A stretch of DNA of 64,000 nt, taken from Escherichia coli (GTDB lineage Bacteria > Pseudomonadota > Gammaproteobacteria > Enterobacterales > Enterobacteriaceae). The stretch lies in NCBI RefSeq assembly GCF_050320075.1, contig NZ_CP190018.1. One strand, written 5' to 3'. Positions 9,150 through 27,629 of this stretch are shown here, piece after piece; position 1 is the first letter of the stretch, and the number at the start of each line of letters is the position of its first letter. A model generated the notes under the pieces. That model had not been told where the DNA came from, did not search any database, and saw only the letters and a list, made by a program, of their open reading frames with translations. Made by a program: the position numbers and the translations under genes.

Positions 9150-9387
9150 AATGGCTCACTCAAGCTTGCTCACGATTGATTCCAGTAACAAACCGTATTG
9201 TGTAATTATTTCTATAGCAGGTCGCTATATAGGCTTGTATACATCGAATAATTTGAAAATCAAAGAGATAGGTAGATTTTCACTCGAAAGTAGTATTACG
9301 TGTAAGTGAGGAGTAATTATTGTTCGGTATCAAAGGGAGACAAAAAAAGCGCCCGCAGGCGCTTTTTAGATTCAGAAAAATTGGGTA

Positions 9388-10701
<1,314 letters not shown>

Positions 10702-22753: not shown

Positions 22754-23458
22754 ATGCGCCTGGTTCAGCTTTCTCGCCATTCAATAGCCTTCCCTTCCCC
22801 GGAAGGCGCATTACGTGAGCCTAACGGCCTGCTGGCACTTGGGGGCGATCTTAGCCCTGCACGCCTGTTAATGGCTTACCAGCGTGGTATTTTTCCGTGG
22901 TTTTCTCCCGGCGACCCCATCCTCTGGTGGTCGCCCGATCCCCGCGCGGTGCTTTGGCCTGAATCACTGCATATCAGCCGTAGTATGAAGCGATTTCATA
23001 AACGCTCGCCCTATCGTGTCACGATGAATTACGCTTTTGGTCAGGTCATTGAAGGCTGTGCCAGCGATCGCGAAGAAGGAACCTGGATCACGCGTGGCGT
23101 GGTCGAAGCCTACCATCGCCTTCACGAACTCGGTCATGCCCACTCCATTGAAGTCTGGCGTGAAGATGAGCTTGTCGGCGGTATGTACGGCGTGGCCCAG
23201 GGAACGCTATTTTGTGGTGAGTCCATGTTCAGCCGGATGGAAAATGCGTCTAAAACGGCGCTTCTGGTATTCTGTGAGGAATTTATTGGTCATGGCGGTA
23301 AGCTTATCGACTGCCAGGTACTTAACGATCACACAGCGTCGCTTGGTGCCTGCGAAATTCCCCGCCGGGATTACCTCAATTATCTCAATCAAATGCGCCT
23401 CGGACGATTGCCGAATAATTTCTGGGTACCACGGTGCTTGTTTTCACCACAAGAATGA
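22754..23458 (+). CDS. aat: leucyl/phenylalanyl-tRNA-protein transferase
   Basis: 234-aa [36 protein letters not shown]... Confidence 0.92.
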
Positions 23459-23739
23459 ATGTTTTCGGCACATTTCTCCCCAGAGTGTTATAATTGCGGT
23501 CGCAGAGTTGGTTACGCTCATTACCCCGCTGCCGATAAGGAATTTTTCGCGTCAGGTAACGCCCATCGTTTATCTCACCGCTCCCTTATACGTTGCGCTT
23601 TTGGTGCGGCTTAGCCGTGTGTTTTCGGAGTAATGTGCCGAACCTGTTTGTTGCGATTTAGCGCGCAAATCTTTACTTATTTACAGAACTTCGGCATTAT
23701 CTTGCCGGTTCAAATTACGGTAGTGATACCCCAGAGGAT

Positions 23740-23961
<222 letters not shown>

Positions 23962-24002
23962 TTGTTTTACCGCCTGATGGGCGAAGAGAAAGAACGAGTA
24001 AA

Positions 24003-24030
24003 AGGTCGGTTTAACCGGCCTTTTTATTTT
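24003..24030 (+). terminator. rho-independent terminator downstream of infA
   Basis: Hairpin aggtcggtt/aaccggcct followed by tttttatttt. Confidence 0.75.
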
Positions 24031-24214
24031 GTGATATGTATGAAGTACTTTGGAAGTATAAGTCCATAACTTGTCTCGATGTAGATATACTGCACAACTT
24101 GTTTACAGTATGAGCAAACAATAATTATCATTAAAATTCTTCTTGACCGTTTTACTCCAACTCCCTATAGTAGCGCCCCGTTGCCACCCATGAGGTTTGG
24201 TAGCAAAACAATTT

Positions 24215-24302
24215 GGTGAGGTGTCCGAGTGGCTGAAGGAGCACGCCTGGAAAGTGTGTATACGGCAACGTATCGGGGGTTCGAATCCCCCCCTCACCGC
24301 CA
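24215..24302 (+). tRNA. serW: tRNA-Ser (GGA anticodon)
   Basis: 88-nt GGTGAGGTGTCCGAGTGGCTGAAGGAGCACGCCTGGAAAG...GGGGGTTCGAATCCCCCCCTCACCGCCA; long variable arm, encoded CCA. Confidence 0.95.
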
Positions 24303-24659
24303 TATTTAAAGAAAAGCTCGTACGAAAGTGCGAGCTTTTTTTTCGCATATTGCACTCCAGGGGGGATGAGAAGCCCCGACCGGGGTTCGACAACTGGCGC
24401 AGCCAGTTGGACAGACCACGAACACAGTGAGTGGGCTGCCCGCAGGGCGAGCGAAGCGAGTCAATCCCCCCCTCACCGCCATATTCAAAGAAGAGCTCGT
24501 ACGAAAGTGCGAGCTTTTTTTTCGCATATTGCACTCCAGGGGGGATGAGAAGCCCCGACCGGGGTTCGACAACTGGCGCAGCCAGTTGGACAGACCACGA
24601 ACACAGTGAGTGGGCTGCCCGCAGGGCGAGCGAAGCGAGTCAATCCCCCCTCACCGCCA
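24303..24659 (+). repeat. two tandem ~178-bp units (24303-24481, 24482-24659), each = terminator hairpin + ~110 bp GC-rich segment + last ~18 nt of serW
   Basis: Units near-identical; each ends in tcaatcccccc(c)tcaccgcca and begins with aaagctcgtacgaaagtgcgagcttttttttt hairpin; a third copy of the hairpin follows at 24660. Confidence 0.85.
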
Positions 24660-24940
24660 TATTTAAAGAAAAGCTCGTACGAAAGTACGAGTTTTTTTTC
24701 GCATTTTATCTGCCTGTACGGCAGTGAACGGTATAAAAATCGAGTTTTTCTTTCGGTTGGCTTTCTAAGCTGCCTGTACGGCAGTGAACTCAAATACTAC
24801 ACGTTTAGTCCGTTATTAATAAAGCAAAACCATCTCATTTTCCTGCTGCCACCCTTTTTTATTCTTACCTTCCAGCACCATTAATTATCAACAACTTACC
24901 TTCACCTCCAAAAATAGGGTTTTCACCGCCCCAGCCTACA

Positions 24941-24977
24941 AACAAAAAGTCCGTAACCTCTTTCGAGATTACGGACT
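24941..24977 (-). terminator. rho-independent terminator downstream of clpA
   Basis: 9-bp stem agtccgtaa/ttacggact; on the minus strand it is followed by a U-rich run. Confidence 0.7.
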
Positions 24978-25001
24978 TCACCAACCTACCTGACAATCAG
25001 A

Positions 25002-27278
25002 TTAATGCGCTGCTTCCGCCTTGTGCTTTTGTGCACTCTGGAATCCATAAGTCAGCTCATTTTTCTCTTTATCCAGCGCAACCGTCACCTGACCGCCGTC
25101 CACCAGCGAACCAAACAACAGTTCGTTGGCGAGCGGTTTTTTCAGGTTGTCCTGGATGACACGCGCCATCGGACGTGCGCCCATTGCCCGGTCGTAACCT
25201 TTCTCGGCCAGCCAGTTACGCGCTTCCTGGCTCACTTCCAGAGAAACACCTTTCTGATCCAACTGAACCTGCAACTCGACGATGAATTTATCCACTACCT
25301 GATGGATCACGTCGGTGGAGAGATGATCGAACCAGATAATGTTGTCGAGACGGTTACGAAACTCCGGCGTAAAGATCTTCTTGATCTCTTCCATCGCATC
25401 GGTGCTGTTGTCCTGGTGGATAAGACCAATCGATTTGCGCTCAGTTTCTCGTACCCCAGCGTTGGTGGTCATCACCAATACCACGTTACGGAAGTCCGCT
25501 TTGCGTCCGTTGTTATCGGTCAGCGTACCGTTGTCCATCACCTGCAACAGAATATTGAACACGTCCGGGTGCGCTTTCTCGATTTCGTCCAGCAGCAGCA
25601 CCGCATGTGGATGCTTGATGACCGCATCAGTCAGCAAACCGCCCTGATCAAAACCAACGTATCCCGGAGGCGCACCAATCAGACGGCTGACGGTATGGCG
25701 TTCCATATACTCGGACATATCAAAGCGCAGAAGCTCAATGCCCAAAGCTTTCGAAAGCTGTACCGTCACCTCTGTTTTCCCGACCCCGGTAGGGCCGGCA
25801 AACAGGAACGAACCGACCGGTTTATGTTCGTGACCTAAACCTGCACGCGCCATCTTAATGGCTTCAGTCAGCGCCTCAATGGCTTTATCCTGACCGAAGA
25901 CCAGCATTTTCAGGCGATCGCCGAGGTTTTTCAGGGTATCGCGGTCACTCTGAGAAACACTCTTCTCTGGAATGCGTGCAATACGGGCCACCACGGACTC
26001 AATATCCGCCACATTAACGGTTTTCTTGCGTTTGCTTACCGGCATCAGGCGTGCGCGAGCGCCCGCTTCGTCGATGACGTCAATGGCTTTATCCGGCAGA
26101 TGACGATCGTTAATGTATTTCACCGCCAGCTCTACCGCTGCACGCACCGCTTTTGCGGTATAACGCACATCGTGGTGCGCTTCATACTTCGGTTTCAGGC
26201 CGTTGATGATTTGAACAGTTTCTTCGATCGACGGTTCAGTAATATCAATTTTCTGGAAGCGACGCGCCAAAGCACGGTCTTTCTCGAAAATGTTGCTGAA
26301 CTCCTGATAGGTTGTCGAACCAATTACGCGAATTTTACCGCTGGAGAGCAACGGTTTGATCAGGTTAGCCGCATCGACCTGACCACCAGACGCTGCACCC
26401 GCACCGATAATGGTGTGGATCTCATCAATAAACAGGATGCTGTTAGTGTCCTGCTCCAGCTGCTTGAGCAACGCTTTAAAACGTTTTTCAAAGTCGCCGC
26501 GATATTTTGTGCCCGCTAACAGAGAACCGATATCGAGAGAGTAAATCGTACAGTCAGCCATCACTTCCGGCACATCACCCTGAACAATTCGCCAGGCAAG
26601 ACCTTCCGCAATCGCGGTTTTACCGACACCAGATTCCCCCACCAGCAGCGGGTTGTTTTTACGGCGACGGCAGAGAACCTGAATAGCACGCTCCAGCTCC
26701 TTCTCACGACCAATCAGTGGGTCGATTCCGCCCACGCGCGCAAGCTGATTCAGGTTCGTCGTGAAATTCTCCATACGTTCCTCCCCACCAGCTTGTTCTT
26801 CGCTGTTTGGCTGGCTGCCAGGATCAGAAGACTGTGTCGGCTCGTCTTTACGCGTGCCATGAGAGATAAAGTTCACCACATCGAGACGGCTGACTTCATG
26901 TTTACGCAACAGATATGCCGCCTGCGACTCCTGTTCGCTAAAGATAGCGACCAGAACGTTTGCACCGGTAACCTCATTGCGACCGGAGGACTGGACATGG
27001 AAGACCGCACGTTGCAGCACACGCTGAAAACTCAGCGTCGGCTGTGTGTCGCGCTCCTCTTCACTGGCAGGCAGAACGGGTGTGGTTTGTTCAATAAAGG
27101 CTTCCAGTTCCTGACGGAGCGCAACCAAATCCACAGAACACGCTTCCAGCGCCTCCCGGGCAGATGGGTTACTGAGCAGCGCCAGTAACAAGTGCTCGAC
27201 GGTCATAAACTCATGACGGTGCTCGCGCGCTCTGGCGAAAGCCATATTTAAACTGAGTTCCAGTTCTTGATTGAGCAT
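25002..27278 (-). CDS. clpA: ATP-dependent Clp protease ATP-binding subunit ClpA
   Basis: ORF 25002..27293 trimmed to ATG at 27278 ([24 protein letters not shown]..., 758 aa); two AAA+ modules. Confidence 0.96.
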
Positions 27279-27308: not shown

Positions 27309-27629
27309 TCAGGCTTTTTCTAGCGTACACAGCAATGGATGCTCATTCTCCCTCGCGTACTTGTTCACCATCGCCACTTTGGTTTCTGCAACCTCGGCGG
27401 TAAAGACTCCGCAAATGGCCTTCCCCTGGTAGTGAACAGCGAGCATCAATTGCGTTGCACGTTCTACATCATAAGAAAAGAATTTTTGTAACACGTCAAT
27501 AACAAACTCCATCGGAGTGTAATCATCATTGACTAATATCACTTTATACATAGATGGCGGTTTTAGCGCGTCGCGAACTTTTTCTTCCGCCAGTTGATCA
27601 AAGTCCAGCCAGTCGTTCGTTTTACCCAT
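27309..27629 (-). CDS. clpS: ClpA adaptor protein ClpS
   Basis: 106-aa [46 protein letters not shown]... Confidence 0.96.

Follow-up and report, generated by a model that had tools for sequence, protein, structure and literature searches.

A two-repeat orphan type I-F CRISPR array with a csy3-derived spacer between serW and clpA of Escherichia coli

Introduction

What is a pair of identical short hairpins doing between the serW and clpA genes of Escherichia coli, when the terminators of neither gene account for it? In the 64-kb window, i.e., the whole stretch of E. coli DNA that was analysed, the 20-mer CTGCCTGTACGGCAGTGAAC is found by sequence search and by a repeat finder at 24710-24729 and at 24770-24789 of the plus strand, with a start-to-start distance of 60 bp, and each of the two copies contains CTGCC-TGTAC-GGCAG, which is an inverted repeat (CTGCC/GGCAG) with a 5-nt loop. 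The pair was described in an initial annotation made from the sequence, and its positions, spacing and short inverted repeat were confirmed exactly. Its placement, with the tandem repeats associated with serW on one side and the terminator of clpA on the other, was also correct, and the view that it is explained by the terminator of neither gene agrees with our terminator scan, in which these hairpins were not called.

The duplication is not expected by chance, with 0 matches of the 20-mer in 100 dinucleotide-preserving shuffles. A search for additional copies, as the initial annotation had proposed, gave none within the 64-kb window at up to 3 mismatches. That the motif is unique and not conserved outside this strain, named in the initial annotation as the finding that would refute it, was not borne out, since 5422 of the 5426 complete E. 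coli genomes have the locus and the long arrays of cas-positive strains are made of the identical repeat.

Results and Discussion

Identity of the repeat pair

At the right-hand copy the identity runs 8 bases beyond the 20-mer, and therefore the real unit is a 28-nt repeat (24762-24789), with the right-hand 20-mer being the reverse complement of its first 20 nt. In an Rfam scan of 23500-25500 this repeat matched the CRISPR-DR4 model over its full length (model positions 1-28) with the score given in Table 1 and E = 2.7e-10 (gathering score 35), and the match remains above threshold with the whole window as search space. The alignment covers the complete 28-nt repeat GUUCACUGCCGUACAGGCAGCUUAGAAA, which differs from the consensus solely at the variable loop base. 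The left-hand 20-mer is the conserved part of the terminal repeat, which matches model positions 1-20 (the hairpin and the 3' handle) and then diverges (AUAAAAUG), its last 8 nt being degenerate; a terminal repeat of the same form recurs in orphan arrays of other strains. As minus-strand RNA, both repeats have a predicted minimum free energy fold of -8.6 kcal/mol with a 5-bp stem and a 5-nt loop, .....(((((.....)))))........, in agreement with the structure line of CRISPR-DR4 in Rfam.

For comparison we used two cas-positive strains, L001 (NZ_CM148343) and L008 (NZ_CP027371), in which NCBI annotates "CRISPR" at this site. Every non-terminal repeat in the arrays of both strains is identical to the 28-mer of the window. 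L001 has 22 repeats of this 28-mer, with spacers of 32–33 nt and a 60-nt period, and both of its arrays close with a repeat that diverges after position 20. The period of 60 in the window likewise consists of 28 nt of repeat and 32 nt of spacer, and there is one such spacer, whose 32 nt are not shared with non-CRISPR DNA of the locus. A degenerate repeat marks the leader-distal end of an array, so the leader must be on the clpA side, and the order on the minus strand is leader (clpA side), 28-nt repeat, 32-nt spacer, degenerate terminal repeat and hairpin terminator. All features of an I-F-type CRISPR array (RF01317; repeat cluster 4 of Kunin) that were tested, namely repeats, period, hairpin, leader and degenerate end, were found. 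The positions of all elements are collected in Table 1.

Table 1. Elements of the serW-clpA locus and neighbouring genes; positions refer to the 64-kb window.
Element	Position	Strand	Basis
aat	22754-23458	+	
infA	23743-23961	+	
serW, tRNA-Ser(GGA); conserved locus boundary distal to clpA	24215-24302	+	ARAGORN, Rfam tRNA
Two RtT-like tandem units, outside the CRISPR element	24345-24481, 24525-24659	+	Rfam RF00391, 45.1 and 48.6 bits
Third copy of the serW terminator hairpin, abutting the terminal repeat	24666-24699	both	Terminator-like: + 24666-24699, - 24691-24674
Terminal (leader-distal) repeat, GTTCACTGCCGTACAGGCAG-ATAAAATG	24702-24729	-	CRISPR-DR4, 29.7 bits, below gathering score
Single 32-nt spacer, GCCAACCGAAAGAAAAACTCGATTTTTATACC, from csy3 (cas7f)	24730-24761	-	csy3 match behind CC PAM
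Leader-proximal CRISPR repeat, 28 nt, GTTCACTGCCGTACAGGCAGCTTAGAAA	24762-24789	-	Rfam RF01317 CRISPR-DR4, 50.1 bits
AT-rich array leader, from the clpA terminator to the first repeat	24790-24945	-	Homology to leaders of full arrays
clpA intrinsic terminator, parting clpA transcription from the leader	24946-24979	-	Inverted repeat, 15 pairs and T-run
clpA	25002-27278	-	
clpS	27309-27629	-	

Two identical short palindromes, 60 bp apart in intergenic DNA, could also be taken as stand-alone hairpins, for example an operator bound by a protein, a REP-like element or an additional terminator in the serW-clpA interval. However, the opposite strand gives a full-length match to the I-F CRISPR repeat model, the same 28-nt unit builds arrays of 6 and 16 repeats beside cas genes at this site in other strains, the hairpins have no T-run on their 3' side and are not called by the terminator scan, and the motif is confined to a single locus of the window, unlike REP elements. 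We regard this reading as refuted, with practically no probability left to it. It is almost certain that the 20-mers are the conserved repeat cores of an orphan type I-F mini-array with a csy3-derived spacer, read on the minus strand. The initial annotation was right in reporting a real hairpin-forming pair, but the CRISPR array was not recognised, the wrong strand was read, 20 nt instead of 28 nt were taken as the unit, and the spacer was missed. Its hint at a small transcript or a protein-binding signal pointed in the right direction, because the hairpin of a CRISPR repeat is the binding and cleavage site of Cas6f in the crRNA precursor.

Leader and flanking elements

The gene order in the window is aat-infA-serW-array-clpA-clpS. 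The leader aligns end to end with the leaders of the clpA-side arrays of L001 and L008 and of other orphan arrays (91% over 340 nt to L008). In the leader, no sigma-70 site was found at the threshold of 9 of 12 positions, and a relaxed scan gave weak sigma-70-like candidates at 7–8 of 12, so that the promoter was not located. The hairpin at 24666-24699 has the form of a terminator on both strands and is therefore probably where the array transcript would end.

The RtT-like units that follow serW are a tandem repeat of 179/178 bp, in which each unit opens with the last ~19 nt of the tRNA and the terminator, as at the tyrT locus; the tRNA 3' end with the terminator is repeated at 24288-24342, 24467-24521 and 24645-24699. 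Their copy number differs among strains: K-12-like and cas-positive strains have none, ST2747 and TUM1226 have one, the window strain and EC21Z-063 have two, and YZLc1-3 has two plus a shortened unit of 131 bp. Two mechanical open reading frames cross this stretch (24485-24793 on the minus strand, 102 aa, and 24606-24884 on the plus strand, 92 aa), and we take them to be spurious; they run through the repeats, terminators and RtT units. A "hypothetical protein" annotated over the same stretch in the THO-008 genome is probably spurious as well. In the infA-serW interval of the window, 24026-24133 are 108 bp of unrelated sequence with no remnant of an I-F repeat. Elsewhere in the window, 9240-9374 of the plus strand match the enterobacterial sRNA family STnc130 (Rfam RF02084, 140 bits).

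Absence of cas genes from the window

In L001 and L008, cas1f-cas3f-csy1-csy2-csy3-cas6f are found between the clpA-side array and serW. A second I-F array, annotated and with a leader of its own, is present in L001 between infA and serW (L001 4364-4692), and matches to the I-F repeat occur in this interval of L008 as well (around 10238-10278), where no array is annotated. When the six Cas proteins of L001 were used in tblastn and the 8.6-kb cas region in blastn, no I-F cas homologue was found in the 64-kb window, the sole match being the spacer. The adjacent cas1f, cas2/3f, csy1, csy2, csy3 and cas6f that make up a complete type I-F system are therefore missing from the window, which makes the element an orphan array and not a complete system, and an array that is inert by itself. 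Judged by its sequence, it is a two-repeat orphan of the clpA-side I-F array. Both its site (clpA-serW/infA) and the lack of I-F cas genes in the 64-kb window are as in anti-cas arrays.

Origin of the spacer

The spacer reads in the same direction as the csy3 coding strand, its first base being the second of codon 288. It matches the csy3 gene of L001 (5906-5937) at 30/32, spacer positions 2 and 23 being mismatched, and that of L008 (9001-9032) also at 30/32, with mismatches at positions 26 and 29, and in both strains CC directly precedes the protospacer on the spacer-sense strand; all four of these variable positions are third codon positions. For E. whittamii and Escherichia sp. E1V33 the match is 31/32, with a single mismatch at position 2. 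In a scan for donors over one genome per bacterial species, in which a PAM-anchored pattern degenerate at the wobble positions was used, six csy3-type matches were obtained, with CC 5' of the protospacer in all six and the best at 31/32, and a perfectly matching donor was not found in this one-genome-per-species set. It is already known that the PAM of the E. coli I-F system is GG at the leader-proximal end of the protospacer, equal to CC on the spacer-sense strand (PMC3506596). The best match of the spacer is therefore a cognate I-F cas gene beside an I-F PAM, as is the case for anti-cas arrays.

No phage and no genuine plasmid carrying the spacer was found. A plasmid origin was rejected, as the sole "plasmid" match is a chromosome of 4.9 Mb filed as a plasmid, and so was a phage origin, for which the sole match is a chance match of 21 nt (E = 0.9). 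The former is PLSDB record NZ_CP134663.1, a 4.9-Mb E. coli sequence that carries the orphan array and is evidently a chromosome in a plasmid collection.

The spacer has C at position 2 in common with the L008 type and TTTTTAT in common with E. whittamii, and since states of two csy3 allele groups are thus combined, it may preserve a csy3 allele that is extinct or unsampled. The common E. coli csy3 allele has a mismatch at spacer position 2, within the PAM-proximal seed, and such a mismatch should weaken direct interference with this allele. Only tentatively, and with more doubt than confidence, we propose from these comparisons that the csy3 spacer represents an anti-cas lineage not explicitly described in the accessible literature, that it may keep an extinct or unsampled allele, and that against the common allele it may act mainly by priming and not by direct interference.

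Other orphan arrays at the same site

Five strains without cas genes were compared, two of which have the spacer of the window while the others belong to three different spacer lineages. The K-12-like spacer matches cas1f, with 26 of 32 nt contiguous, 2 mismatches and a CC PAM, and the O55:H7 spacer, a 31-nt variant of the K-12-like one, likewise matches cas1f. Another orphan spacer matches cas3f at 32/33 in L008, and a further one matches cas3f at 32/32. The protospacer of every orphan array that was sampled is preceded by CC.

The K-12/MG1655-type array, the commonest orphan array of E. coli, shares the architecture and the flanks of the window array, but it has a cas1f spacer and no RtT units, and a G in the stem of its terminal repeat is replaced by A (GTTCACTGCCGTACAGACAG; L003 462-481, strain 4A, identical in an MG1655 derivative). 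This change should weaken the Cas6f hairpin of the only crRNA of that array. A decayed array of the window type is found in E. coli TUM1226 (L015 5972-6059), with two substitutions in the spacer (GCCAGCCGAAAGAAAAACCCGATTTTTATACC) and a terminal repeat that reads GTTTAC...

Distribution among E. coli genomes

The presence of the locus in 5422 of the 5426 complete E. coli genomes was determined with segment 24650-25010. The 32-nt spacer was matched at 654 places in 652 of the 5426 genomes; the exact spacer is present in 379 genomes, in unannotated intergenic DNA where sampled, while the remaining matches are mostly to csy3 at 30/32, and, among the matches listed, all those outside the orphan array are in csy3. 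The csy3 gene itself was found in 241 of the 5426 genomes. From 652 genomes with a match and 241 with csy3, it follows that about 411 genomes (7.6%) carry the spacer or a near copy, and from 654 places in 652 genomes that at most 2 hold both the spacer and csy3. Part of this exclusion is a matter of structure, since a single locus holds either the orphan array or the cas operon, and the mutual exclusion of spacer and cas operon is not proof of interference. The exact K-12-type 88-nt array is found in 1423 genomes, including an MG1655 derivative, and is far commoner than the csy3 version.

As to annotation, RefSeq/PGAP leaves the two-repeat array unmarked ("none" in 34 of 34 sampled exact matches), and longer arrays at this site are annotated as CRISPR.

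Proposed function of the array

In type I-F systems, Cas6f (Csy4) binds the stem-loop of the repeat and cuts at the 3' base of the repeat stem, and the resulting crRNA of 60 nt has an 8-nt 5' handle and a 20-nt 3' hairpin handle; the description of this cleavage and of the handles is reportedly owed to Haurwitz (2010) and Wiedenheft (2011). In the window, the CTGCC/GGCAG hairpin would be the site at which Cas6f binds and cuts, and a single processed crRNA would be expected, in which the 8-nt handle CUUAGAAA is followed by the 32-nt spacer and then by the 20-nt hairpin handle. Its 3' handle would be drawn from the first 20 nt of the second repeat, and these are the 20 nt that are conserved there. 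From repeat 1 the only possible crRNA would need the last 8 nt, and from repeat 2 the first 20 nt, which would be why the duplicated identity stops at 20 nt.

We infer that the array is transcribed constitutively, in line with Almendros 2016 as far as that work is related in PMC8616872 and PMC5972030, where native orphan arrays are said to be constitutively expressed and to interfere with plasmids carrying I-F cas genes, with priming. On entry of an I-F cas operon, the Cas6f and Csy proteins that it encodes would process and load the resident crRNA, and Cas2/3 would then be aimed at the incoming csy3 gene. The carrier DNA would either be destroyed by its own system or become the object of primed spacer uptake.

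The best explanation of the locus, with a probability of roughly 0.8, is an orphan I-F mini-array with a csy3 spacer, whose function is most likely anti-cas. A stronger claim is that the array serves as an active anti-cas guard in this strain, which we consider likely but hold with noticeably less assurance.

A different view of the same array is that it is inert, i.e., the decaying scar of a lost I-F system, whose csy3 spacer records the self-targeting that selected for cas deletion and which has no present use; loss of cas genes led by self-targeting is said to be the view of Diez-Villasenor (2010). There are several observations that would fit, as the window has no cas genes, the spacer has 1–2 mismatches to every csy3 allele found (for the commonest E. 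coli allele, one of them in the seed), a strong promoter consensus is missing from the leader, and other strains have decayed copies, the stem-breaking terminal repeat of the K-12 type being present in all 1423 genomes mentioned. Yet decay is not what the spacer itself suggests, with its exact 32 nt kept in 379 genomes, nor the terminal repeat of the window, whose first 20 nt are intact, and every sampled orphan spacer targets a cas gene with the correct PAM. Short arrays, if neutral, should moreover be lost fast (Touchon and Rocha, PMC2886076), and native orphan arrays are reported, in so far as PMC8616872 and PMC5972030 relate it, to interfere with cas-bearing plasmids. Altogether we consider an inert scar unlikely. 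An origin in self-targeting and a present use as a guard are compatible, and both can be true.

It could also be thought that the array acts independently of Cas proteins, as a leader-driven transcript with two hairpins that serves as a regulatory RNA or an RNA decoy, since the 88-nt transcript is predicted to be stable (-19.8 kcal/mol, z = -2.4) and is flanked by the leader and a terminator-like hairpin. This is highly improbable, because strains with the same repeats and leader have completely different spacers, and a conserved regulatory RNA would be expected to show the reverse; besides, all the spacers point at cas genes, and the CRISPR repeat is the only Rfam family that was matched.

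Comparison with known systems

The anti-cas mini-array of the window is an element of an already known kind in a known place, namely the published orphan array between clpA and serW/infA with an anti-cas spacer, which most E. coli carry and by which an invading I-F system is reportedly directed at its own genes. Touchon and Rocha (2010) described it as CRISPR3, with GTTCACTGCCGTACAGGCAGCTTAGAAA as "Repeat2", to which the 28-mer of the window is identical, situated between clpS and aat in all Escherichia; the anti-CRISPR hypothesis for this locus comes from the same article, in which Cas1, Cas3 and Csy2 are named as targets of the anti-cas spacers (PMC2886076). The name used by the Mojica laboratory is CRISPR4.1-2 in locus CRISPR-III (Diez-Villasenor 2010; Almendros 2014/2016; PMC3903273; Nat Microbiol 1:16081). 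The window array has the same site, the same 28-nt repeat and leader, the same two repeats with one spacer and the same degenerate terminal repeat (...GATAAAATG), and it is likewise without I-F cas genes and has a spacer matching an I-F cas gene beside a PAM. There is no difference in kind, although the window targets csy3 whereas the open-access texts name Cas1, Cas3 and Csy2; csy3 as an anti-cas target is not mentioned in the open-access texts on CRISPR3/CRISPR4.1-2, and the spacer string GCCAACCGAAAGAAAAACTCGATTTTTATACC has no occurrence in the searchable full-text literature.

The active I-F systems of E. coli LF82, UTI89, S88 and ED1a (PMC3506596) and of P. aeruginosa PA14 (Csy complex, Cas6f/Csy4) share with the window the repeat, the hairpin, 32-nt spacers, the 60-nt period, the leader and the PAM. 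Unlike the window, E. coli strains with an active system have the cas operon and a second array between infA and serW. Their arrays have 5–15 spacers, whereas the window has one, aimed at a gene of the system itself, which would be self-destructive in a cas-positive cell.

What appeared as an unexplained pair of hairpins is a CRISPR array of textbook size that genome annotation leaves unmarked. It belongs to a class of arrays that have no cas genes and remember cas genes, and that are thought to vaccinate most E. coli against regaining an active I-F system, whereby they would stay receptive to plasmids. Our analysis records the csy3-targeting version in about 7% of complete E. coli genomes and otherwise adds nothing to the known picture, its only mildly new point being a memory of csy3 that matches no sampled allele exactly.
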